Source: Anaerolineae bacterium
Lineage (GTDB): Bacteria; Chloroflexota; Anaerolineae; UBA1429
Length of the DNA: 64,000 nt
Direction: 5' to 3'
Assembly (NCBI GenBank): GCA_963675785.1
Contig: OY776562.1
Coordinates: 3,104,001 to 3,168,000, forward strand
Shown here: positions 5,135 to 30,839 of the stretch, one piece after another
Layout of the letters: every line of letters starts with the position of its first letter
How positions within the stretch are numbered: the first letter of the stretch is position 1
Program-made: the position numbers and the translations under genes
Notes under the pieces: generated by a model
Seen by the model: only the letters and a program-made list of their open reading frames with translations
Databases searched by the model: none
Told to the model about the DNA's origin: nothing

Positions 5135-5377
5135 ACAAAAAACGTCTCGCCCCAAACTTCAGGGACGAGACGCAATGCTCGCGGTACCACCCCGTTTGAT
5201 TGCTCTATGCTAAAGAGCAACCCACTCGGCCAGCCAGTAACGCGACTGAGACGTCCGGTCATACTCTGTTCTGCCCGGCTGCTCATCGGCCCATTCACCC
5301 GGTACTCGCGGCTCCGTTCGCAGCACAGGGAGCTCTCTTACGCTGTTTGCCAGGCTACTATTCCGAATCAACGCATT
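5135..5377 (-). ncRNA. T-box riboswitch with Trp (UGG) specifier
   Basis: On the minus strand: AGTA, AGAGA and GCTG stem I motifs, specifier loop GAA-TGG-G (TGG at 5293-5291), T-box AAACGGGGTGGTACCGCG (5197-5180), then terminator GCGTCTCGTCCC...GGGGCGAGACG-TTTTTT. Confidence 0.93.
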
Positions 5378-5383
5378 GGCAAC

Positions 5384-20160: not shown

Positions 20161-20172
20161 ATTTCCGAATAG

Positions 20173-20276
20173 CTCTCCGAGTTATGTGGCCTGAGGCCAA
20201 TCCTTTGGGCGGGTATGGCGCATAACCGATGGGTGCGGGTGGAAACGCCCGCGCCTCCCGTGTTTGGAAAGGGGAG
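20173..20276 (+). ncRNA. Moco-class riboswitch lacking P3 (tungsten-cofactor-type variant)
   Basis: P1 CTCTCC/GGGGAG, CTCCGAG, P2 GTTATG/CATAAC enclosing CCTGAG...GTATGG, CGATGG, P4 with GGAAAC GNRA loop, GCCTCCCG-TGTT-TGGAAAGG 3' signature. Recognised by eye against the Moco RNA motif. Confidence 0.85.
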
Positions 20277-20294
20277 ACGTTTTCCTGCTCGTTC

Positions 20295-20333
20295 AGCGAG
20301 TAGGCGTCTTCTTGCGCCTGCTCGCTTTTTGTT
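20295..20333 (+). terminator. riboswitch-controlled intrinsic terminator
   Basis: 12-bp stem AGCGAGTAGGCG/CGCCTGCTCGCT followed by TTTTGTT, 19 bp before the ECF S-component start. Confidence 0.85.
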
Positions 20334-20351
20334 GTGTAGAGGACAGTAAAA

Positions 20352-21710
20352 TTGACGGAAGAAAAACGTTACTATTTTACCACGCGGGACTTGCTTATTA
20401 TGGCCGCCATGGCTGGCCTGGGTGGTGTGGCTAGTACGGCAATCAATGCGCTTGGTGATGTGATGCAGGCAGCCTTGGGTTTTGCTGGCACTACGCAGTG
20501 GGCCGCCGGTCTTCACACAATCTTTTTGCTTCTTGTTGTGGGGCTGGTTCGTAAAGGCGGTGCAGCTACATTGGCCGGATTGCTCAAGGGGGCCGTTGAG
20601 CTGCTCAGTGGCAACACCCACGGCATTATTATTCTATTGGTTGATTTAGCAGCTGGATTGATCATCGATTTGGTTTTTGCCCTGGTACAGCAGCGCCAAA
20701 GCCTATTGGTTTATATACTGGCTGGTGCATTTTCGGCGGCCAGTAACGTCATTGTTTTTCAATTGTTTGCTCTGGCGCCGGAAGATGTCCTTGCAGCTGT
20801 CTGGCTGGTGGCCCTGGTTGCAGCGGTTTCGGGCGCACTGCTAGGCGGTTGGGTTGCATGGTTGCTGCTGGGTGTGCTTCACAAGAATGGTCTGGTTCGA
20901 GAGGAGCCGGTGCGTACCATGCGCGGCTGGCGCTATGCTGTGTTTCTAGGCGTTTTTGCGCTGATTCTCATTGGCGGGAGCTGGACCATGGTGGAATCCT
21001 TGGCTGGGCCGCCGGTGATCGATATTCGTGTGGATGGCGAGGTGGTCTACCAATTTTCGCCCGATGACGACAACCTACCTCTCATTGTCGAAGATGTCGA
21101 ACTGAACGGCATCAAACGTAGTGTAAGCGGCTATAAATTGGCCGAGGTCATTGCTTTGGCTGTCAGTGGTACGGAATATGGCTCGGCGCTAATCTCTGCC
21201 ACGGATGGCTATTCCTTTTTCATTACTGATCGCGAGATTGAGGAAAACACAGAGCTGCTGTTGGCAGTGAGCGGCGAGGGTGAGGACACCAGTTACGAGA
21301 TCGTCGGTGCCGAGAACTCGAAAGCCTGGGTGCGTAACGTAGCTACCATTGATCTGGCCGAACAAACGCTCATCGAGGTGTCGGGCTTGATTGGTCTGCC
21401 CTCACCCTACAATCCCGCTGACTGGCAATACGAGATGGACAGTGCCTATCTGGATGTGGGGTATGGCGAGCAAAAATACCAGGGAACTATTGCCGCCGAT
21501 GTGCTGACAGCCTGGGAACCTTCAACAGGCGCAGAATCGGCCGTATTTTACAGTGCGGATGAACAGGTTGAACTAAGCCTGGAAGAGATTGCCACGGATC
21601 GCAGCTTGCGCATTTGGTCGGTCAATGCTGCTGGTGGAACCAGTTTTGCTCTGGCCACTGAAGGTGGCGAGATATTGTTGACCGACGTCGAACGTATCGA
21701 GGTCAAATGA
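20352..21710 (+). CDS. ECF transporter S-component (YkoE-like) fused to two extracytoplasmic molybdopterin-binding-like domains
   Basis: N-terminal ~180 aa: FTTRDLLIMA, LVRKGGAA, about 6 TM. Then one TM and soluble repeats SGYKLAEVI..ATDGY..WVRNVATI and VSGLI..YQG..ADVL..DVERIEV. Confidence 0.8.
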   Translation: MTEEKRYYFTTRDLLIMAAMAGLGGVASTAINALGDVMQAALGFAGTTQWAAGLHTIFLLLVVGLVRKGGAATLAGLLKGAVELLSGNTHGIIILLVDLAAGLIIDLVFALVQQRQSLLVYILAGAFSAASNVIVFQLFALAPEDVLAAVWLVALVAAVSGALLGGWVAWLLLGVLHKNGLVREEPVRTMRGWRYAVFLGVFALILIGGSWTMVESLAGPPVIDIRVDGEVVYQFSPDDDNLPLIVEDVELNGIKRSVSGYKLAEVIALAVSGTEYGSALISATDGYSFFITDREIEENTELLLAVSGEGEDTSYEIVGAENSKAWVRNVATIDLAEQTLIEVSGLIGLPSPYNPADWQYEMDSAYLDVGYGEQKYQGTIAADVLTAWEPSTGAESAVFYSADEQVELSLEEIATDRSLRIWSVNAAGGTSFALATEGGEILLTDVERIEVK

Positions 21711-21713
21711 ACT

Positions 21714-23162
21714 GTGTCTGAGCCGATGGTGCGCATCGACCAGCTCTCTTTTCGCTATGCAGCTGGTGAAACGCTGGCCCTCGATCATGTTTCGCTGGCG
21801 GTCGACAAGGGCGAGTTTGTGGTGTTGACCGGACCAAGCGGCTGCGGCAAGTCGACGTTGGCACTAGCCATGGGCGGTTACCTGGCGCATCAATTCAAAG
21901 GAGAGTTCGAGGGCACTGTTGAGGTGGCCGACGTCGATACGCTCCGAGAGCCGCTTTATCAGGTGGCGGACGTGGTCGGTTTGGTGCAGCAGAACCCGGA
22001 GGATCAGTTTTGCACCTTGCGGGTGGACGATGAGGTGGCCTTTGGTCCAGAGAATCGTTGTGTAGAGCCACTGATGATTCGCCAACTTGAGCAGAATTCG
22101 TTGATGAGGGCTCAAGCTCAGCATCTTGAGGGTCGTCTGCTGGATTCGCTCTCTGGCGGTGAAAAGCAACGGGTGGCTCTGGCGTCTATGCTGGCTGGCA
22201 CGCCGCAATTGTTGATTTTGGACGAGCCCACATCCAGCCTCGACCCTCAGGCTACACAGGATGTGTTGGCAGTATTGGATAATCTTCGTCGCGAGCGTGG
22301 CCTGACTCTGATCGTCATCGAACACAAATTGGATGCCCTGATGCGCTTTAATCCGCGTATTGTGCGTATGGCCCAGGGGCACATCGAACAAGATCATTCT
22401 GTTTTTCAGCCAACTGTACCCGTAGTTCATGCACCCTCAATGGCAGGTAAGGTTGCTGTGGCACTAGAGGGCGTCTCCGTCACTCTAGAAGATCATCACG
22501 CACTCGATAACGTAACTGTAGATTTTCACTCTGGCCAGTTGACTGCTCTGATGGGAGCCAATGGTGCTGGCAAGACCACACTCTTGCGGGTCATCCGCGG
22601 TTTACAGCCTGTGCGGAGAGGTTGTGTTTGTGTGTTAGGTCAGGATGTTGCCAAGGATACTGTGTCAGCTCTAGCCGGGCGCGTGGGGTTTATGTTTCAG
22701 AATCCCGATCACCAGTTGCTAAGCGATACGGTGCAAGGTGACATGGCTTTTGGTCTATCTGCCCAGCAGGTCACCCAAGATGCACTTTATCATCAGCAAT
22801 TGCTTGAATTGGCTGGTCTTTGGGAGCTGCGCAATAGACACCCCTTTTCTCTGAGCTATGGGCAAAAGAGGCGTCTGAATCTGTCTTCACTGTTGGCGCA
22901 AAAACCGCAGATCATTCTGGTTGACGAACCGCTCATTGGGCAGGACCCTAACAACGCCCAGTATGTCATGGGGGTGCTCAGGGCCGCTGCGGATGAAGGC
23001 GTTTGTGTGATCGCGGCACTTCATGCCCCGGGGATGGTTCAGCGCTTTGCAGACAGGGTTGTGTTTTTGGCTCAGGGGCGTATCGATATCGATGCGGCAC
23101 CGGATGCTGCCTTTGCCGCATTGTCTTCCTCCGGGCGCAAAGCTTTTGCAGGTATGTTATGA
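21714..23162 (+). CDS. ECF transporter double ATPase (A-A' fusion)
   Basis: Two ABC domains: GPSGCGKST/QNPEDQ/LSGGEKQR and GANGAGKTT/QNPDHQ/LSYGQKRR. Confidence 0.93.
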   Translation: MSEPMVRIDQLSFRYAAGETLALDHVSLAVDKGEFVVLTGPSGCGKSTLALAMGGYLAHQFKGEFEGTVEVADVDTLREPLYQVADVVGLVQQNPEDQFCTLRVDDEVAFGPENRCVEPLMIRQLEQNSLMRAQAQHLEGRLLDSLSGGEKQRVALASMLAGTPQLLILDEPTSSLDPQATQDVLAVLDNLRRERGLTLIVIEHKLDALMRFNPRIVRMAQGHIEQDHSVFQPTVPVVHAPSMAGKVAVALEGVSVTLEDHHALDNVTVDFHSGQLTALMGANGAGKTTLLRVIRGLQPVRRGCVCVLGQDVAKDTVSALAGRVGFMFQNPDHQLLSDTVQGDMAFGLSAQQVTQDALYHQQLLELAGLWELRNRHPFSLSYGQKRRLNLSSLLAQKPQIILVDEPLIGQDPNNAQYVMGVLRAAADEGVCVIAALHAPGMVQRFADRVVFLAQGRIDIDAAPDAAFAALSSSGRKAFAGML

Positions 23163-23911
23163 CAGCCAGCATGAGCCGTCTCGGAGTGGTTGGGCGCATT
23201 CATCCCTTACCCAAATTTGCCTGGCTCCTGGCTGTTTCGGTGGCCGTGTTTGTGGTGGGCCAACCGGTGGTTATTTGGGCCATCGTCCTAGGGCTCGTAC
23301 TGGTGGGTTATCCTTATCTGGTCGGTAGGTCGCGTGCGTTCCGCCTGACTATATTCTCTACGTTGGGACTTTTTCTGCTGCAGGCGCTATTTTACCACCA
23401 GGGACGGGTGCTGTTCGATCTGTGGCCGGGAGAGGCGCAATGGTCGGTGACAGTAGACGGTCTGCTACGCGGACTGCGTGTATCGGGTCGCTTTCTCGCC
23501 ATTATACTGGCCAGCCAGGTGTTTGTAGGGTCGACAGACTCTAGCGAACTGGCCTACAGCCTGATGCAGGCTGGCGTTCCCTATCGATTTGGCTTTGCGC
23601 TTGTCTCAGCCCTGCGTATGACGCCTATGTTTCGCAGTGAGGGTCGTACAGTGTACGAAGCTCAACTTTGCCGAGGCGTGGCGCTGGATCGCGGTGGCTT
23701 GCGTGGCCTTTTGGTTAGGCTGCAGCGCTTTTTGTTGCCGCTGGTGGTATCTGCTCTCAGAAGGGTCGATAGCCTGTCCATCTCGATGGAAGGCCGACAC
23801 TTTGGGCGTTATCGAACCCGAACCTTTGCACAACCTTTGCATCACCACCGCAGAGACTACGCGGTCTGGGGGTTATTGATTTTTTTCATCGCCATCATCG
23901 TCGTCCTGTAG
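23159..23911 (+). CDS. ecfT: ECF transporter T-component (EcfT/CbiQ)
   Basis: HPLPK, ALRMTP, EAQLCRG and SMEGRHF (two XRX motifs); ATGA overlap with the ATPase stop. Confidence 0.92.
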   Translation: MTASMSRLGVVGRIHPLPKFAWLLAVSVAVFVVGQPVVIWAIVLGLVLVGYPYLVGRSRAFRLTIFSTLGLFLLQALFYHQGRVLFDLWPGEAQWSVTVDGLLRGLRVSGRFLAIILASQVFVGSTDSSELAYSLMQAGVPYRFGFALVSALRMTPMFRSEGRTVYEAQLCRGVALDRGGLRGLLVRLQRFLLPLVVSALRRVDSLSISMEGRHFGRYRTRTFAQPLHHHRRDYAVWGLLIFFIAIIVVL

Positions 23912-23921
23912 GTGGGCCAAT

Positions 23922-25844
23922 ATGTGGAACGAGTTTCTGTACAGTATCGCGACCTATCCCTACCTCTATGCACTGTTCACTGGCGTTATGCTCCTGTGGA
24001 TCACTGTAGGGCTACACGCCCTACGTCGTGTGCGGCAGGCGCCTGACGAGCGACCACGCCTCACCTTCAAAAAATTTGGCGCTGCATTCCAAGAAGCGTT
24101 GGTTCAACGGCGCATCTGGCGGAGGCCTCTGGCCGGTGCGATGCACCTCTGCCTGTTTGCCGCAGGGGTGCTCATTCTGGTGGCCTATATTATGACTCAC
24201 CATGTTGCCCCTCGTGGCGAGGCTTGGCAGGCCAGCCGCACTGCACATTTCATTGCTGATTTGGGCGTAATGCTAGGTTTTGTTGGACATATGCTGGCGG
24301 GCTGGCGACGTTTTATTCGCAAAGAGACCTCTCGCGCCTTTAGCGATGTGCTGTTGTGGGGCTTGGGCTTTGTGTTCATCATCGCCTATGGCCTGGCTAA
24401 TGCGTTACAGGTGGCCATCACCGATCCAAATTGGCAGCGTGCGGCCTTTTTGAGCCGCCCGATAGCTGGGCTTTTCTCAGGCATGGCGACTCTTACACTG
24501 CGCTCACTTTACGGGTTAGTTTGGGCTCTTGTCCACGGCTCTTTGTTCGTAGGCGTTTTGCTGGTACCCCTGACCAAGTGGCGCCACGTTTTGGCAATCG
24601 TAGTCAACCTTGCGCATGCGGACGATCTTCCGCCAGCAGTAGCTGTCTCCGAGGATCTGAATGGTGATGGGCCCTTTGGTCTGGGGCGAACGGATCAGCT
24701 CAGCAAGAAGCAACTCTACGAAACCTGGGCTTGCGTTCGTTGTGGGCGTTGTAGCACGGTCTGTCCGGCAACGATGACTGGCAAGATGCTTGATCCGCTC
24801 AAACTGATAGAGGCCGAGCTGGAAGCCCCAAGGATGGCCAGCTTACCCGACTTTATCGATCAGGAGGCACTTTGGCAGTGCAGCATGTGCCTGGCCTGCG
24901 CGGATGTATGCCCTGCGGATATTGCCCCCTGGCGCCATTTACTGGATATGCGTCGCGAGCGCGTGCTGGAGGCGGCCGAGTTTCCCCAAGAGCTTCAAGG
25001 CGTTTTTCGCGGCATAGAGCGGCGCGGCAACCCGTGGGGCACGGCTACCAACAAGAGCGAAATCGCTCGTGAAGCAGGTGTGCGCCTATTATCCAAAGGC
25101 GATTCTTGCGATGTGTTGCTGTGGATGGGCTGTATGGTGGCGGTGGACCCACTGGCACAGCAGGCCTGGCGGGCTATGGCGCAGTTGTTGGCAGCGGCCG
25201 ACGTCGATGTGGCTTGCCTGGGCGATGCCGAGCCCTGCTGCGGCGATGCAGCACGCCGTCTAGGCAATGAGTACATCTGGCAGCAACAGGTGGAGACCGT
25301 GAGTGATGCCATGCATGATATTCATGTGGGACGGGTTGTCTCAGTTTGCCCACATTGCGCTAACACTTTGGGCAACGAGTATCCGCAGGGACTTTGGCAG
25401 GGCGTGTCTCACGCTCTTGAAGAATTGAGCTGTCTGGCCCAGGAGGGGCGTATCGTCCCCGAGGCACATCAGGTCAAGCCCTGTCGTGTGGTTTACCATG
25501 ATCCTTGCTATTTGGCGCGCGGCCTTGACGTCATTGATTCTGTGCGCCGACTGCTTGTTGCCACGCCAGGTTGCGAACTAGTCGAGCCTGCGCACAAGGG
25601 CAAGGATGTGTGGTGTTGCGGTGCGGGCGGCGGCCAGATGTGGCTTCAAGAGGATGACGGTGCGGCTTTGGGCCAGTCACTCTTTGATGAACTGGCCAAT
25701 ACCAAGGCCGAACTAATACTCTCTGCATGTCCTTATTGTGATACGACACTGCAATCTGAGTTTGGCAATACGAACGATGTAAGTGATGTGGTGATTTTTA
25801 TCGCCAATCGATGGCGTGCTAGTGACAGGAGTGATCAAGGGTGA
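23922..25844 (+). CDS. membrane-bound HdrD/GlpC/FadF-like Fe-S oxidoreductase
   Basis: N-terminal ~6 TM with several His; CVRCGRCSTVCP and CSMCLACADVCP (2x 4Fe-4S); two CCG domains (CCG..CPHC; HDPC..CCG..CPYC). Confidence 0.9.
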   Translation: MWNEFLYSIATYPYLYALFTGVMLLWITVGLHALRRVRQAPDERPRLTFKKFGAAFQEALVQRRIWRRPLAGAMHLCLFAAGVLILVAYIMTHHVAPRGEAWQASRTAHFIADLGVMLGFVGHMLAGWRRFIRKETSRAFSDVLLWGLGFVFIIAYGLANALQVAITDPNWQRAAFLSRPIAGLFSGMATLTLRSLYGLVWALVHGSLFVGVLLVPLTKWRHVLAIVVNLAHADDLPPAVAVSEDLNGDGPFGLGRTDQLSKKQLYETWACVRCGRCSTVCPATMTGKMLDPLKLIEAELEAPRMASLPDFIDQEALWQCSMCLACADVCPADIAPWRHLLDMRRERVLEAAEFPQELQGVFRGIERRGNPWGTATNKSEIAREAGVRLLSKGDSCDVLLWMGCMVAVDPLAQQAWRAMAQLLAAADVDVACLGDAEPCCGDAARRLGNEYIWQQQVETVSDAMHDIHVGRVVSVCPHCANTLGNEYPQGLWQGVSHALEELSCLAQEGRIVPEAHQVKPCRVVYHDPCYLARGLDVIDSVRRLLVATPGCELVEPAHKGKDVWCCGAGGGQMWLQEDDGAALGQSLFDELANTKAELILSACPYCDTTLQSEFGNTNDVSDVVIFIANRWRASDRSDQG

Positions 25845-26689
25845 GCAAGCGATGGACGTGGCTCCTCGTCGGGGCCATTGGTGTTGTAATCGGTATCGGT
25901 TTGGCCAGCTGGAAGACCTTTCCCATCGAGGATATGATTGCACGAACTACTTGCGCTGAATGTCATGATGTGCACGGGGCTCTCGAAATTGCCCAAGTTC
26001 CAGCTCAGAGCCAGGTCTGGATCTTGGGCGATGTGCCGGAATCCACTTATTTCTTTGTAAATGATCTTTTTCCTCTTGCAGACGAGACGGAGGGTACGAG
26101 TATTTCACTCATCGACTTGTTGGCCGATTATGGGGTGACGGATTGGGAAAAGGTCTCAATTGAATCCCTCGATGGCGGACTGGTAACGCTGGAGCGCCAG
26201 TATGTCACGGAGAATTCCCTTCTTGTGCCCTATGTCGATGGCATTCGCTTCAAGGATGTCAATCTGCACGAATCCACCTGGCTCAAGGGTGTACGCTTTA
26301 TCACTGTACAGGGCAGCGAGACGCCCCTGCTTCTCGGAGATACGCAGACTTCGTTAGGGCGTTTGCTGATGGGTGATCGCACAGCCGTTATAGCCGAAGC
26401 CAGTGATGCGCTATATTCCAGTCCTGTGGACGGACAGATTTACCAGGGTAACTATGCGCACATTTACACTGGCGCGTCGCTTGTTTCACTGTTGACGGCT
26501 TACCCAGAGGCAACTACTTTTGCCTGCACCAGCCAGGATAGCGAGACGGTATCATACACACGTGAGGAACTACAAGAGGCTGTCATTGCGCCGGTATCTG
26601 GTTTGCCTTCGCTGGTGCTGCCGCAGTATGGTCAGGGGAGCTGGGTCATTGGGATTGAGAGCATTGTGCCAGAGGATGGGGAGAGTTGA
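25841..26689 (+). CDS. membrane-anchored protein with CxxCH heme motif and two molybdopterin-binding-like domains
   Basis: N-terminal TM, CAECH at 25952-25966, then SLIDLL..SLDGG..WLKGVRFITV and YTGASLVSLL..SQD..PSLVLP..WVIGIESI. Confidence 0.7.
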   Translation: MSKRWTWLLVGAIGVVIGIGLASWKTFPIEDMIARTTCAECHDVHGALEIAQVPAQSQVWILGDVPESTYFFVNDLFPLADETEGTSISLIDLLADYGVTDWEKVSIESLDGGLVTLERQYVTENSLLVPYVDGIRFKDVNLHESTWLKGVRFITVQGSETPLLLGDTQTSLGRLLMGDRTAVIAEASDALYSSPVDGQIYQGNYAHIYTGASLVSLLTAYPEATTFACTSQDSETVSYTREELQEAVIAPVSGLPSLVLPQYGQGSWVIGIESIVPEDGES

Positions 26690-26690
26690 T

Positions 26691-27824
26691 ATGTTGCGAG
26701 TGAAGAGATTGGGGGCATTGCCAAGTGCGCTACTGGCGATAGCCCTAGTTGCGGGTTGTTCGCCCAGGTGGGAGATTGGACTGACCATTGATGGGGATGT
26801 ACGTTCACCGCTTACTGGCCAGCAATGGAGCACGGCACTAGAAAGTTATCCGGATGAATGCGTTGAAGATAGTGTTCCCCTGGAACGGCTTTTATCCATG
26901 GCTTCTGTTCCGGCGGTAGAGTCAGTAAGCGTAGACGACCAATCATGGTATTGGGCCGATGTGTATGACGATGCCTGGGTAGAAAAGGGCGGTACGCTGG
27001 TCATCGCTGGTGAAAGCATAGAGACAAAAGATATTAGCATCGTTTTGCCGACACTTGATGCTTCGGTAACAGTTGAGCTGATAGATATTGCTCCCACAAT
27101 TGCTGGCGCGTTGGGAGTTCGTTCGCCGGAGGATACTGAGGGCCGTGCTGTAGCAGCTTTTGACGCCGAACATGTCGTCCATATTTTTTTGGATGGCTTT
27201 GGCTATGAGAACTATCAATCGGTTGTAGGTACGCGCACTACATCCTTTCTAGACAGCCTGGGCGCTCCGCGTATTGCCCGAACAGTTTACCCTAGTGCGA
27301 CCAAGGCCTCGACGGCCGCGATGATTACCGGCGCTTCGCCCACGGTGAATGGTGTTTCTTCTGGTGAACTGCGCACCACCGAAAGCGAGACGATCTTTCA
27401 GGTTCTGACTGAGGCAGGGCTTTCTAGTGTGGCCGTGGAAGGTTCATCTTTGGCTTTCAATCTGGTCTCGACAGAGATCATTGTCTCGGGTGACCGCGAC
27501 GATGACGGCTATTCGGACGACAATACTTATGAGAATGCCCTCGAAGTGATGAACGAGGGATTGCCCGATTTCCTCTGGGTGCATTTTCATGGAATCGACG
27601 ATGCTGGGCACACGTACGGTCCGTTAGCTGACGAGACGCTGGCTATGATGACACGCGTGGATGGCTATGTTTCTGATATCGTACAGCGATTACCCGAGGG
27701 AACTCTGGTGATCATTTGCGCCGATCATGGAATGCACGATGTGGTAGAAGATGGCCGTCTGGGGAACCACGGTTCCCTCTTGTCTCAGGATATGTATATT
27801 CCCTTCTGGACGATTCAACTCTGA
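26691..27824 (+). CDS. lipoprotein of the alkaline phosphatase superfamily (nucleotide pyrophosphatase/phosphodiesterase-like)
   Basis: Lipobox LVAGC; metal-ligand motifs FLDGFG, YPSAT (Thr nucleophile), DDAGH, ADHG, GNHG. Confidence 0.85.
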   Translation: MLRVKRLGALPSALLAIALVAGCSPRWEIGLTIDGDVRSPLTGQQWSTALESYPDECVEDSVPLERLLSMASVPAVESVSVDDQSWYWADVYDDAWVEKGGTLVIAGESIETKDISIVLPTLDASVTVELIDIAPTIAGALGVRSPEDTEGRAVAAFDAEHVVHIFLDGFGYENYQSVVGTRTTSFLDSLGAPRIARTVYPSATKASTAAMITGASPTVNGVSSGELRTTESETIFQVLTEAGLSSVAVEGSSLAFNLVSTEIIVSGDRDDDGYSDDNTYENALEVMNEGLPDFLWVHFHGIDDAGHTYGPLADETLAMMTRVDGYVSDIVQRLPEGTLVIICADHGMHDVVEDGRLGNHGSLLSQDMYIPFWTIQL

Positions 27825-27832
27825 GTATAATG

Positions 27833-27877
27833 AAAGGGCGGGGAAGAGATTGGCCTCTTCCCCGCCCTTTTTTTTAT
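27833..27877. terminator. intrinsic terminator between the two convergent riboswitch-controlled units
   Basis: AAAGGGCGGGGAAGAG-ATTGGC-CTCTTCCCCGCCCTTT followed by a long T-tract. Confidence 0.9.
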
Positions 27878-28353
27878 TCGACGACTTCGATACTCGTGAG
27901 TTTGTATAGCCAGCCATCGGCTGGTAGGTTGGGTATTACAACGCGAATAGGGGCGGTCTTGGTGTCGTCAGTGGTATAGACGCCATCCCTCTTCAAAGCG
28001 ATGATAGCCTGATCAAGATCCGAGATATTGACCTCCTTGGCATAGCCATCAGAGGCGGTGAGCAAGAGGCTGACGGCATTTTCACTCATGCCGGCTTCTT
28101 CCAAAATAGCCATCAGGTCGGGGCCTTCCCATGTGTTGGTCTCATTTTCGCCTTGCGACTTGCGCATGAGGACATTTTCGAGCACTACCTGATCCCGCTC
28201 AGTGAGATCCTGGTATGAGAGCGTAAGAGGCGTTTCTACGGCTCCAGTGATTTCTAGGTTCCAATCAACTTTGGGGGCACCATTACCGCAGCCTGTGGCA
28301 ACCAGCATGACGATGACAATAGCAACTACCATGGTAAGCGAGCGTTTTCTCAT
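27874..28353 (-). CDS. lipoprotein with a molybdopterin-binding (sulfite oxidase/MsrP-fold) domain lacking the Mo-ligating Cys
   Basis: Start MRKRSL with AAAGGA RBS; lipobox VATGC; WNLEITGAVETPLTLSYQDL, TWEG..L, ASDGY, PIRVVIP, WLYKLTSIEV. No Cys in the mature domain. Confidence 0.85.
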   Translation of the reverse strand: MRKRSLTMVVAIVIVMLVATGCGNGAPKVDWNLEITGAVETPLTLSYQDLTERDQVVLENVLMRKSQGENETNTWEGPDLMAILEEAGMSENAVSLLLTASDGYAKEVNISDLDQAIIALKRDGVYTTDDTKTAPIRVVIPNLPADGWLYKLTSIEVVE

Positions 28354-28448
28354 TTTGATCCTTTCGATATAGGAAGAATGCTCGCTCATGTCCGCCGTCG
28401 TGTTTGTACACAACAACACACAGCACGATTTTCGTGCTGCGATTGCGG

Positions 28449-28574
28449 TTCTCCTTTCCAAACACGGGCGGCATGAGCGTTTCCACTCAGACCGTTCGCC
28501 GGGCAATTGTGGTTGCCTGGCTGCGATCGCAGACCCTAGAGTTTTCTGTTCCGTAGGCCGTGCGATTCGGAGAA
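28449..28574 (-). ncRNA. Moco riboswitch with P3 stem (molybdenum-cofactor type)
   Basis: On the minus strand: P1 TTCTCC/GGAGAA, P2 ATCGCA/TGCGAT enclosing CCTACGG...TAGGG, P3 GCCAGGCAA/TTGCCCGGC (28521-28498), P4 TGAGT-GGAAAC-GCTCA, GCCGCCCG-TGTT-TGGAAAGGAG. Confidence 0.85.
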
Positions 28575-28593
28575 CAGTCTATTCACTAGGGCT

Positions 28594-28622
28594 ATTCTAA
28601 ACCATGGATTCTGTCTCGGCAA
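28594..28622 (-). promoter_or_regulatory. sigma70 promoter for the second Moco riboswitch unit
   Basis: TTGCCG-17bp-TAGAAT about 20 bp upstream of the aptamer. Confidence 0.65.
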
Positions 28623-28708: not shown

Positions 28709-29473
28709 ATGATTTTGGATAAATTCAATCTGACGGGCAAGGTTGCTCTCGTTACGGGGGCAAGTCGGGGTTTGGGCCAGGGGATGGCCGTAGGATTGGC
28801 TGAAGCTGGCGCCGATGTGGTTGGTGTTGCGCGTAGTTCGTGCGACGAAACAGCCAAGCAGATCGAGGCACTGGGCAGACGTTTTCTACACATCCCTTTT
28901 GATTTGGCCTTGGCCAGTGTCCTAGATTTGAATGGCCTTGTTGACCAGGTTGTAGATGAGATGGGGGCTCTCAATATTTTGGTGAACGCCGCCGGCGTAA
29001 CAGCGCGTCATCCTTCGCTAGAATACCCTGAGGATGACTGGGACTTTGTGATGCAAGTCAACCTCAAAGCCTTGATGTTTCTTTCACAGGCAGCGGCCCG
29101 ACATTTCGTCAAGATCGGCGGTGGCAAGATCGTCAATGTAGCCTCGGCCTTGTCATTTCAAGGGGGGTATCTGGTGCCTTCTTATGCGGCCTCCAAGCAT
29201 GGTGTAGCGGGTGTTACCAAGGCTTTGGCCAACGAATTTGCTTCGATGAACATCAACGTGAATGCTATTGCTCCGGGCTATATGTTGACGGATATGACAG
29301 CACCGATTGAGGCTGACCCTGTGCGGAATCCCCAGATTATGGTGCGCATTCCAGCGGGTCGCTGGGGCTCGCCCGAAGATCTCAAAGGTGCAGTAGTTTA
29401 CCTTGCTTCGGATGCATCTGCCTATTGCCACGGCTCTACACTGGTAGTGGATGGCGCCTGGCTGAATCGCTAG
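28709..29473 (+). CDS. kduD: 2-dehydro-3-deoxy-D-gluconate 5-dehydrogenase-like SDR
   Basis: TGASRGLG, SFQGGYLVPSYAASKHGV, NAIAPGY, RIPAGRWG. Confidence 0.85.
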   Translation: MILDKFNLTGKVALVTGASRGLGQGMAVGLAEAGADVVGVARSSCDETAKQIEALGRRFLHIPFDLALASVLDLNGLVDQVVDEMGALNILVNAAGVTARHPSLEYPEDDWDFVMQVNLKALMFLSQAAARHFVKIGGGKIVNVASALSFQGGYLVPSYAASKHGVAGVTKALANEFASMNINVNAIAPGYMLTDMTAPIEADPVRNPQIMVRIPAGRWGSPEDLKGAVVYLASDASAYCHGSTLVVDGAWLNR

Positions 29474-29546
29474 TTTTCCACACGGGCCTGTTCGTTTGCT
29501 GCGTGCAGGCTCGTCTTTTTTAATTCTTGTAAATGCAGGGAGGAAT

Positions 29547-30839
29547 ATGGCAATCCGCAAGGGGGGGCGGAACCCGGAAAAACGCAATATAGCGCTTTCA
29601 GCCATCAATCAGTTTTTCGTTGAAGCGGGCATGACGGTCAGTGATGCCAGCATGGTGCTTTCCCTTTACCTTCGAGCCCTTGGCGGCTCCAATTTCCTTA
29701 TCGGACTCTTACCCTCACTTCGTTTCTTTGGTTGGCTTGTACCGCAATTCGTGATAGCAGGAACGCTAGAGCGCAAACGGCGTATGATGCCTACCATTCG
29801 TTTGCTTGAGGCTGTGCGCTTTACCTCTCTTTTTGCCGTCGCAGGCTTGACACTCGCTTGGGCAGATTCGAGACCCCGCCTGTTGATCTCTGTCTTTCTC
29901 GTTTTGTATATGGCAACGCGCGTGGCGGCGGGTTGTTCAGCGGTGGGACGGACCGAGATCATGGGACATATCGTTCCTCCGGACAAGCGCTCCTCACTTA
30001 TTTCGCTGAGGATGTTTGCTGGTGGCGTGGCTGGCTTTTTGAGCGGGTTCATCGTCAGCGCCTTACTGGATCCGAACCTAATCGATTTTCCTCAAAACTA
30101 TGCCATCCTCATTGGCCTCGCTGGCCTGTGCTTTGGTATTGCTGTACTCATCCTTGGTTTTGTCGATGAGCCAGAAAGAGAGCCCAAATGCGATGGTCTT
30201 TCACTTTTTGATCAGCTTCGTGCTGGGCCAGGTGTCATTCGCAAGGATAAACGATTCCGCAGGTATCTATTTGTTCGCCTGGGGGCTACTGGGTTTCAGA
30301 TCGCTTCTCCCTTTTATATCCTTTATGCTACCGAAGTTTTGGGTGCGCCCGATCTGATTGCCGGGGCCTATATCTCGATCCGAACTGCGTCTCGTGTCCT
30401 TTCGACACTTGGCTGGGGACGGTATTGCGAGCGGCACGGCGGTATGCGCTCGATGCGCTATGGCTTGGCTTTGGGCGGCTTGGCCTTGACGATTGTGACT
30501 TGTTTCCCATTCCTGGCCAACGCTTTTTGGTCCCAGGGAATTCCGACTTATGCGGCCTGGCTTTTCGGGATAGCATTTGTTGTTGAAGGAATGGCACTTG
30601 CTGCTCAGCAGGTGGGGAGTAATTCATATCTCTATCAAGTTGCGCCGGATGACCAAATTCCGACTTATTTTGGCCTTGCCAATACAGTCATGGGGCCGTT
30701 CTACTTTTTGCCAGCACTGGCTGGCGCATTACTTGGTATTGTTGGCTATCAAGCCATCTTTGCTTCGGCAGCGGTGTTCCTTTTCGGTGGCTCAGCAATG
30801 ACTTTTGTTCCAAGTTCTCAGACAAAGAAAAAGGGGTGA
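29547..30839 (+). CDS. MFS transporter
   Basis: About 12 hydrophobic segments; start MAIRK with GGGAGG RBS. Confidence 0.8.
   Translation: MAIRKGGRNPEKRNIALSAINQFFVEAGMTVSDASMVLSLYLRALGGSNFLIGLLPSLRFFGWLVPQFVIAGTLERKRRMMPTIRLLEAVRFTSLFAVAGLTLAWADSRPRLLISVFLVLYMATRVAAGCSAVGRTEIMGHIVPPDKRSSLISLRMFAGGVAGFLSGFIVSALLDPNLIDFPQNYAILIGLAGLCFGIAVLILGFVDEPEREPKCDGLSLFDQLRAGPGVIRKDKRFRRYLFVRLGATGFQIASPFYILYATEVLGAPDLIAGAYISIRTASRVLSTLGWGRYCERHGGMRSMRYGLALGGLALTIVTCFPFLANAFWSQGIPTYAAWLFGIAFVVEGMALAAQQVGSNSYLYQVAPDDQIPTYFGLANTVMGPFYFLPALAGALLGIVGYQAIFASAAVFLFGGSAMTFVPSSQTKKKG

Follow-up and report, generated by a model that had tools for sequence, protein, structure and literature searches.

A candidate riboswitch-regulated ECF importer for a pterin-based tungsten or molybdenum cofactor in an Anaerolineae genome

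This study concerns a locus of seven protein genes and two riboswitches, found in a 64,000-nt stretch of the genome of an Anaerolineae bacterium (assembly GCA_963675785.1, contig OY776562.1, positions 3,104,001 to 3,168,000). The whole stretch is hereafter named the window, and coordinates given without a prefix refer to it. The locus encodes a transporter of the energy-coupling factor (ECF) class, together with several proteins predicted to act outside the membrane, and we propose it as a candidate importer of the pterin-based molybdenum or tungsten cofactor (Moco, Wco).

Two convergent units under Moco riboswitches

The locus is made of two convergent units, each headed by its own Moco/Wco riboswitch. 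Unit 1 is a tight operon, in which intergenic gaps are of 10 nt at most and three junctions overlap by 2 to 4 nt, and unit 2 consists of one small lipoprotein gene. The first gene of unit 1 (20352-21710, + strand) codes for a 452-aa protein in which a YkoE-type ECF S component (PF09819, 59.7 bits) is fused, via a seventh transmembrane helix, to two outside domains devoid of Cys and with the fold of sulfite oxidase (SO) and PruR. This C-terminal extension beyond the S component covers about 235 residues. In the AlphaFold2 (AF2) model of the S fusion (pLDDT 85.2), the six helices of the S component (residues 11-178) are followed by the seventh helix (192-216), and then by two beta domains. Its best match in the PDB, as found by Foldseek, is the ECF S component 5edl (TM-score on the target, TMt, 0.73; E 4.3e-7), and SorA, YedY and PruR come next.

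The two following genes code for a fused EcfA-EcfA' ATPase (21714-23162, +; 482 aa; TIGR04520, 330.8 bits for a cut-off of 315; PF00005 in two stretches) and for an ECF T component (23159-23911, +; 250 aa; PF02361 CbiQ, 80.5 bits), whose start overlaps the ATPase stop by 4 nt. With its S fold, A-A' ATPase and adjoining EcfT, the transport core is, as judged from these matches, of the dedicated (group I) ECF type, for which import of a micronutrient is predicted.

Both leaders match the full-length Moco riboswitch model (RF01055, positions 1-135), well above its gathering score of 36: aptamer 1 (20163-20290, +) scores 73.0 bits (E 1e-15), and aptamer 2 (28436-28584, -) 60.0 bits (E 6.7e-12). 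From these matches, binding of Moco or Wco by both leaders is predicted. According to the Rfam alignment, aptamer 1 has no P3 stem and aptamer 2 has one. Aptamer 1 is followed by an intrinsic terminator (20295-20326, +; 13-bp stem and T-run), which would be its expression platform, and a hairpin search placed a terminator-like hairpin after aptamer 2 (28419-28441, -). Folded without constraint, leader 1 adopts an alternative structure devoid of the terminator (-87.4 kcal/mol); when the P1 stem of the aptamer is enforced, the aptamer and the complete 13-bp terminator form together (-72.2 kcal/mol). For leader 2, the minimum free energy fold holds the terminator-like hairpin and the aptamer together. 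Leader 1 is thereby predicted, on the basis of these models, to be arranged as a transcriptional OFF switch. Such OFF logic is usual for uptake and biosynthesis genes.

These results bear on an initial annotation of the locus, made from the sequence letters and translated reading frames. It had recognized two Moco-class leaders sharing an identical 16-mer, and the covariance model search agrees, the 16-mer being present in both RF01055 alignments. It had also placed a terminator common to both units at 27833-27877, where a hairpin with a 17-bp stem and a T-run indeed lies (27832-27871). Its list of unit 1 genes (S fusion, A-A' ATPase, T component, HdrD-like protein, CxxCH protein, nucleotide pyrophosphatase lipoprotein) was borne out by profile matches, the CxxCH protein having no Pfam family. 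Likewise, profile scans agree with its remark that the locus contains no Moco biosynthesis gene, no molybdate or tungstate ABC transporter gene and no canonical molybdenum enzyme.

Going by its names in Pfam and in source records, the S family would be expected to take thiamine, hydroxymethylpyrimidine (HMP) or cobalt as substrate. We rejected these candidates, as no thiamine pyrophosphate (TPP) or cobalamin element reached the gathering threshold in a scan of the window and 18 bacterial loci, in which the riboswitches found were all of the Moco class. The window contains three Rfam elements in all, the third one being a distant T-box leader (5158-5380, -; 115.2 bits, gathering score 93).

Three Moco riboswitches were found in the whole genome, and each precedes either the present system or small lipoproteins. 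The third one (73.9 bits, P3 present; G000:C1:851663-852885, locus L001 1501-2726) lies ahead of two small lipoprotein genes in tandem, whose products (182 and 184 aa) share 55-57% identity. Their match to the unit 2 protein is weak (22% identity), and their PF00174 score, 15.5 bits, is below the cut-off. The combination of a P3-less leader for the transporter operon and a P3-containing leader for the free lipoprotein was found in the window and in one other genome. P3-less Moco RNAs correlate with the tungsten form of the cofactor, according to excerpts of the report describing this motif (PMC2408646). By analogy, the difference between leaders might mean that the lipoproteins differ in metal preference.

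Pterin-fold domains and accessory proteins outside the membrane

The unit 2 gene (27874-28353, -) codes for a lipoprotein of 159 aa, about 135 aa once mature, which matches PF00174 with 53.8 bits. Its AF2 model (pLDDT 85.7) was compared to solved structures with Foldseek. The Moco domains of SorA, YedY, SoxC and nitrate reductase were matched with E values of about 1e-8 to 1e-7 (9.6e-9 for SorA) and TM-scores on the query (TMq) of 0.70-0.73. PruR (PDB 7kom, 7kos, 7rkb) was matched with a TMt of 0.66-0.74, for a sequence identity of 17-19%. The SO or pterin fold expected by the initial annotation is thus retrieved through SorA, YedY and PruR.

The same annotation had counted about five Cys-less SO-fold domains in the locus. 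In profile-profile comparisons (hhalign) with the unit 2 domain, domains 1 and 2 of the S fusion reached probabilities of 98.6% and 94.1%, and domain 2 of the CxxCH protein 93.8%. These comparisons support four domains when the unit 2 protein is included. The fifth, domain 1 of the CxxCH protein, is doubtful (21.7%). A sixth, which would be the N-terminal part of the pyrophosphatase lipoprotein, was tried and is unsupported (1.2%, no Pfam match).

None of the SO-fold domains of the locus has the Mo-ligating Cys of sulfite-oxidase enzymes. In the translations, Cys is absent from residues 218-452 of the S fusion and from the mature unit 2 protein. Among 41 members of the unit 2 family, the lipobox Cys is the only invariant one; a D-G-Y motif is invariant as well, and the family has a Trp near the C-terminal end. 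The HMMER alignment to SorA skips the stretch containing the Mo-ligating Cys, and the alignment to SoxC puts it in an insertion, so that what is claimed here on sequence grounds is restricted to the absence of Cys, without assigning a replacing residue. The Mo-co dimerisation family gave no match in the unit 2 protein, whose PF00174 match ends at residue 158 of 159. Therefore, although the best fold matches of the unit 2 protein are with SorA, YedY/MsrP and SoxC, the mature domains of the locus differ from these enzymes by the missing Cys, the missing dimerisation domain and their size of about 135 aa, and the outside proteins should not be filed as enzymes of the sulfite oxidase family.

A further likeness is found with PruR, described in excerpts of its report (PMC13259868) as a periplasmic, Cys-less, non-catalytic pterin binder of SUOX fold. 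Like PruR, the locus encodes small secreted SUOX-type folds without the Mo-ligating Cys. However, PruR acts together with signalling proteins of the DcpA type (GGDEF-EAL protein or kinase), and none of the seven locus proteins belongs to such a family. The domains of the locus are instead lipoproteins, or are fused to a transporter, a cytochrome or a phosphoesterase, under Moco riboswitches.

The last gene of unit 1 (26688-27824, +; 378 aa) codes for a lipoprotein, with a lipobox visible in the translation, ending with a nucleotide pyrophosphatase/phosphodiesterase (NPP) domain (PF01663, 67.1 bits for a cut-off of 23). This domain belongs to the alkaline phosphatase superfamily, and its nearest solved sequences are ENPP1, ENPP4 and PhnA. 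A secreted phosphoesterase recurs in related loci, in two unrelated folds. Besides the window, 7 of the 12 other loci of the class sample described below, all Anaerolineae, have the NPP type. A membrane-anchored, calcineurin-like (Metallophos) phosphoesterase lies directly upstream of the S gene in one Bacillota locus (L025), one Thermoplasmata locus (L016) and one Thorarchaeota locus (L026). The L026 enzyme is also fused to a stretch that matches PF00174 below threshold (20.4 bits for a cut-off of 24). Since two unrelated phosphoesterase folds occur at one place in the system, phosphoester cleavage seems to be required. The simplest reading, by analogy, would be that dinucleotide forms of the cofactor, molybdopterin guanine or cytosine dinucleotide (MGD, MCD), are cut back to the molybdopterin (MPT) form. 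The trimming step already suggested by the initial annotation gains support from this recurrence, and the MobA-like gene retained in these genomes (see below) matches such a reading.

Two further proteins of unit 1 suggest redox chemistry. The first (23922-25844, +; 640 aa) is an accessory HdrD/DsrK-like membrane Fe-S protein (PF02754, 91.7 bits in two stretches; PF13183, 37.3 bits), made of an N-terminal membrane part, a 2x[4Fe-4S] domain and two CCG domains, with a TfrB-like match of 133 bits. Its closest solved relative is PDB 9ojn, an 'iron-sulfur-binding reductase' of 1042 aa (E 3.5e-66). The second (25841-26689, +; 282 aa) is a membrane-anchored CxxCH protein, putatively binding haem c, that contains one SO-fold domain, or two. 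All 11 of its homologues retain the CxxCH motif, which occurs twice in 5 of them. These two proteins, of which the haem-c one is conserved and the HdrD-like one occasional, suggest that electrons are delivered to the outside. Redox conditioning of the cofactor by them would be the weakest step of the model presented below. In the Thorarchaeota locus, a nitroreductase-family gene lies just after the T component (L026 13328-14101, -) and could be a redox partner there.

On the unit 2 side, the locus ends at 28709-29473, because the flanking gene found there is KduD. Next to it, a 447-aa open reading frame (ORF; 29496-30839, +) had no NCBIfam match at E ≤ 1e-5.

Carrier genomes and the cofactor pathway

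The window genome is a single contig of 3.22 Mb, 94.84% complete. Profile searches for MoaC, the C-terminal domain of MoaA, MoaE and MoeA_N gave no match in this genome, and each of them found its family in 11 of 14 control genomes. Three genes of the aldehyde ferredoxin oxidoreductase (AOR) family (AFOR_N) are present, as well as a 702-aa protein of the DmsA (DMSO reductase) family and a 213-aa SO-like protein. There is also a MobA-like protein, again of 213 aa; MobA and MocA models account for all its top matches, each of which stays below its curated cut-off. On this gene content, the window genome appears to use the cofactor but to be unable to make it.

Several candidates for missing functions were examined. 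The only PF00994 protein of the genome, a possible MogA or MoaB, is CinA (TIGR00200, 312 bits for a cut-off of 243). The sole PF13531 matches, which could have indicated ModA or WtpA, correspond to a tandem PstS beside PstC: this 565-aa protein (G000:C1:1962135-1963832; locus L055 1480-3177, -) has two PstS-type phosphate-binding domains, and its gene adjoins that of PstC. TupA, TupB and MOT1 of the Bacillota locus L025 had no tblastn match in the window genome.

We found 596 relatives of the S fusion at E ≤ 0.001. The best 120 of these align over at least 96% of the query with 43-58% identity, except for one 99% copy of the window protein. Where a source organism is named, it is given as Chloroflexi or Anaerolineae, and PF09819 occurs together with PF00174 in many relatives. 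Two sets of genomes were then considered. A scan of species-representative genomes gave a cross-phylum set of 24 loci, from 4 Anaerolineae, 3 Bacillota and 17 archaea, the latter including Thermoplasmata, Thor-, Hermod- and Promethearchaeota. A class sample of 251 genomes from the class of the window gave 13 carriers of a full-length S fusion, including the window genome. In total, 37 carrier genomes were available, and the S-A-A'-T order was kept in all related loci holding enough DNA.

MoaC is absent from 27 of the 37 carriers. Among the cross-phylum carriers, it was found in 4 of 24, and MoeA_N was present in exactly the same 4, so that the same 20 genomes have neither. The genome-by-genome agreement of these two independent markers argues for true absences rather than assembly gaps. 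AFOR_N is nevertheless present in 24 of the 24 cross-phylum carriers, in 2 to 12 copies, and all 36 carriers other than the window genome have AOR as well. A MobA-like gene is kept in 21 of 26 MoaC-less carriers, with scores below the curated cut-off, which among the controls only E. coli passes.

In the class sample, MoaC was found in 227 of the 251 genomes. Seven of the 13 carriers lack it, versus 17 of 238 non-carriers. Each of these seven MoaC-less carriers belongs to a different family. As for the family of the window genome, its 7 other genomes all have MoaC, and none has the S fusion. Among AOR-bearing genomes of the class, carriers make up 7 of 15 without MoaC versus 6 of 207 with MoaC, these being plain counts of related, and so not independent, genomes. 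Conserved synteny and the keeping of Mo/W enzymes in the absence of biosynthesis genes, on which the initial annotation had proposed to check its reading, are both found: gene order is kept, and the 27 MoaC-less carriers retain AOR.

A Moco riboswitch heads the operon in 15 of the 15 Anaerolineae loci with upstream DNA (4/4 in the cross-phylum set, and 11/11 in the class sample, the twelfth other locus of which is cut at the S gene and was not counted). In 14 of these 15, its distance to the S gene is about 500 nt at most; in the remaining one, L043, it is placed 3.3 kb upstream, at the head of a longer operon. Among the 12 other loci of the class sample, the CxxCH protein was found in 9 and the HdrD-like protein in 3 (4 of 13 carriers counting the window). 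A unit 2-type lipoprotein is present in 10; the two loci without it (L044, L046) are those in which the contig stops. Its gene is often led by a separate riboswitch, and in two cases by a tandem riboswitch pair. These pairs precede versions of the lipoprotein with four domains (L042 16143-16841, L047 3341-4037). Two metagenome-assembled Bacillota genomes have a second Moco riboswitch (L025 13477-19503, and L030), followed by the gene of a dockerin-domain protein and by an ORF that exceeds 1618 aa and shows PF00174-like matches. This ORF has the appearance of a very large surface protein built from capture domains.

Eight AOR-bearing, MoaC-less genomes of the class do not have the S-fusion system; three of the eight are 84-91% complete, in 450-520 contigs. 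In three genomes (G145, G209 and G206; loci L057, L058 and L059), a Moco riboswitch precedes an ABC system of the Peripla_BP_2/FecCD type. An NTPase_1/DUF2478/MobB-like gene comes first, before Peripla_BP_2, in G145 and G209, and in G206 the FecCD permease follows. These systems may be a second, unrelated importer of the cofactor, or an oxyanion importer resembling MolABC. In G153, the riboswitch precedes an ordinary binding-protein-dependent ABC system, and in G118 an ABC fragment and a small lipoprotein-like ORF. A riboswitch scan of the other three genomes found no Moco riboswitch.

A proposed salvage importer and its alternatives

Group I ECF importers of the YkoEDC type, such as the thiamine/HMP system of Bacillus, are known to be placed under riboswitches. 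The locus resembles them by its PF09819/YkoE-type S component, fused A-A' ATPase and T component in one operon, and by a cofactor riboswitch with a terminator ahead. It differs from them in three respects. First, the riboswitch is of the Moco/Wco class, and not TPP. Second, the S component has a seventh helix and two outside pterin-fold domains, and to our knowledge ECF systems normally have no extracytoplasmic binding module. Third, genes for a phosphoesterase, a haem-c protein and an HdrD-like protein are found in the operon besides those of the transporter.

We consider it probable, from sequence and structural models, that the locus encodes an OFF-regulated ECF importer salvaging a pterin-based tungsten or molybdenum cofactor (W-MPT, Mo-MPT or a close derivative). 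The initial annotation had proposed uptake of Moco, Wco or molybdopterin by a riboswitch-gated ECF system, and this central idea is supported by a genome in which MoaA C-domain, MoaC, MoaE and MoeA had no match, by the 27 of 37 carriers lacking MoaC, by the conserved riboswitch and by the pterin-fold domains. The metal most likely arrives on the pterin, because the window genome has neither MoeA nor a recognisable oxyanion transporter. That the cargo is the finished metal cofactor has, in our estimation, about an even chance of being correct.

The components of the locus, the fold and family of each, the extent to which they are conserved and the genes held by the genomes are what is shown here. 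From these we infer a substrate, a direction of transport, a trimming step and a redox step, which could be arranged as follows. The Cys-less SO/PruR-fold domains carried by the lipoproteins, the CxxCH protein and the S component would bind the pterin cofactor outside the membrane. The secreted phosphoesterase probably cuts MGD, MCD or another phosphoester to a transportable form, while the haem-c and HdrD-like proteins may pass electrons outward and keep the labile cofactor reduced. The YkoE-type S component would then take over the cofactor, its own A-A'/T module driving import. Once inside, the cofactor could be inserted into AOR-type enzymes, or the MobA-like enzyme could re-nucleotidylate (guanylylate) it for use in bis-MGD enzymes. 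At an ample cytoplasmic supply, the cofactor would bind the riboswitches, the terminators would form, and the genes would be turned off.

A number of points weigh against this proposal. The support for an importer is comparative and structural. Free Moco is chemically labile. The outside domains of the S fusion score 11.9 bits against PF00174 directly, and the assignment of their fold rests on profile-profile comparison and AF2 models. The MobA-like matches, in the window genome and in the carriers, all stay below the curated cut-off. AOR is present in 222 of the 251 class genomes, so that its presence in all carriers discriminates little. MoaC is found in 10 of the 37 carriers, and the system is therefore not confined to auxotrophs; reciprocally, eight AOR-bearing, MoaC-less genomes of the class live without it. 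The operon led by the first riboswitch of the Bacillota locus L025 contains TupABC-like and MOT1-like genes as well as S, A, A' and T. Finally, the PruR pocket is said, in excerpts of its report, to be too truncated for whole Moco (PMC13259868), and the domains of the locus are of PruR size.

This last point leads to a first alternative, in which the substrate would be a metal-free or degraded pterin (cyclic pyranopterin monophosphate (cPMP), metal-free MPT, or an oxidised product of the Form A or urothione kind) rather than the finished metal cofactor. PruR, which the small domains resemble, binds small pterins, and the carriers keeping MoaC and MoeA could complete such precursors. However, cPMP or metal-free MPT could not be finished in the 20 of 24 carriers devoid of MoeA, nor in the window genome, where MoaE and MogA are lacking too and where no oxyanion transporter is seen that would supply the metal. 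We regard a metal-free substrate as unlikely.

A second alternative is that the ECF system imports the oxyanions tungstate or molybdate themselves, with SO-fold domains as anion-binding modules and a riboswitch regulating metal supply, as for modABC and tupABC. Excerpts of the riboswitch report do indicate that Moco riboswitches commonly precede molybdate and tungstate transporters (PMC2408646). The shared operon of L025 and the 10 carriers with MoaC would fit this scheme, and ECF-type systems are known to carry metal ions. But an imported oxyanion could not become a cofactor in the 20 of 24 cross-phylum carriers, or in the window genome, that have neither MoaC nor MoeA. In addition, the outside domains have a pterin-binding fold and not that of anion-binding proteins, and the recurrent phosphoesterase would have no role in oxyanion uptake. 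Import of an oxyanion is in our view quite unlikely.

We hold as very unlikely that the locus encodes an extracytoplasmic redox chain of the SO family (SO fold, haem c and HdrD-like quinone-linked module) using the cofactor catalytically, with the ECF system as an accessory or for outward delivery: the SO-fold domains beside a c-type cytochrome do recall SorAB, CxxCH is kept in all 11 homologues and the operon does encode an HdrD-like membrane protein, but the Mo-ligating Cys and the dimerisation domain are missing, the HdrD-like gene occurs in 4 of 13 class-sample carriers, the predicted OFF-type terminator logic fits supply genes and not cofactor-using enzymes, ECF transporters are known as importers, and genomes unable to make the cofactor have none to export.

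Coming back to the salvage of a pterin-based cofactor, we looked for precedents. No prokaryotic Moco or Wco importer was found in searches of openly accessible full-text papers. Caenorhabditis elegans takes up ready-made Moco from its diet, protein-bound Moco being the bioavailable form according to excerpts of the work (PMC7849362). This animal system has no homology to the locus. We know of no molecular importer for it. Compared with known Moco/Tuco riboswitch regulons, the RNA motif is the same, in both P3-lacking and P3-containing forms. In excerpts of the report, these regulons comprise biosynthesis genes, oxyanion transporters and cofactor-using enzymes, without mention of a cofactor importer, which is what the present locus is a candidate for (PMC2408646). 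An exception left without explanation in the same excerpts (Regulski et al. 2008, PMC2408646) is that of S. wolfei, where P3-lacking RNAs are placed ahead of genes called 'putative sulphite oxidase'.

We rate as new here the association of a known transporter class with a proposed new class of substrate and a new outside architecture. If the proposal is true, it names a transporter for the ready-made cofactor, a microbial route not so far described, and it provides an ECF S component with built-in extracytoplasmic binding domains. By analogy, the 'sulphite oxidase' genes that P3-less Moco RNAs precede, left unexplained in 2008, might be accounted for in the same way.

Biosynthesis of Moco or Wco is usually treated as obligatory for prokaryotes having molybdenum or tungsten enzymes. 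An importer of this kind would explain why AOR is retained in the 27 of 37 carriers that apparently lack the MoaC step. More broadly, the finished metal-pterin cofactor could be a 'vitamin' traded among microbes, with a dedicated ECF importer common to Anaerolineae, Bacillota, Thermoplasmata and Asgard archaea. The S component would have its own pterin-capture domains, with free capture lipoproteins and a trimming phosphoesterase as helpers, joined in some lineages by a haem-c/HdrD path, and AOR-rich lineages, including many Asgard genomes, would be auxotrophs. We see this wider picture as evenly poised between right and wrong. If it holds, the pterin cofactor joins the exchanged vitamins that shape microbial communities, and the reading of metabolic reconstructions changes for uncultured Anaerolineae and Asgard archaea, for the culture of which a medium supplement could be suggested. 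AOR-rich auxotroph lineages would then depend on their neighbours for the cofactor.

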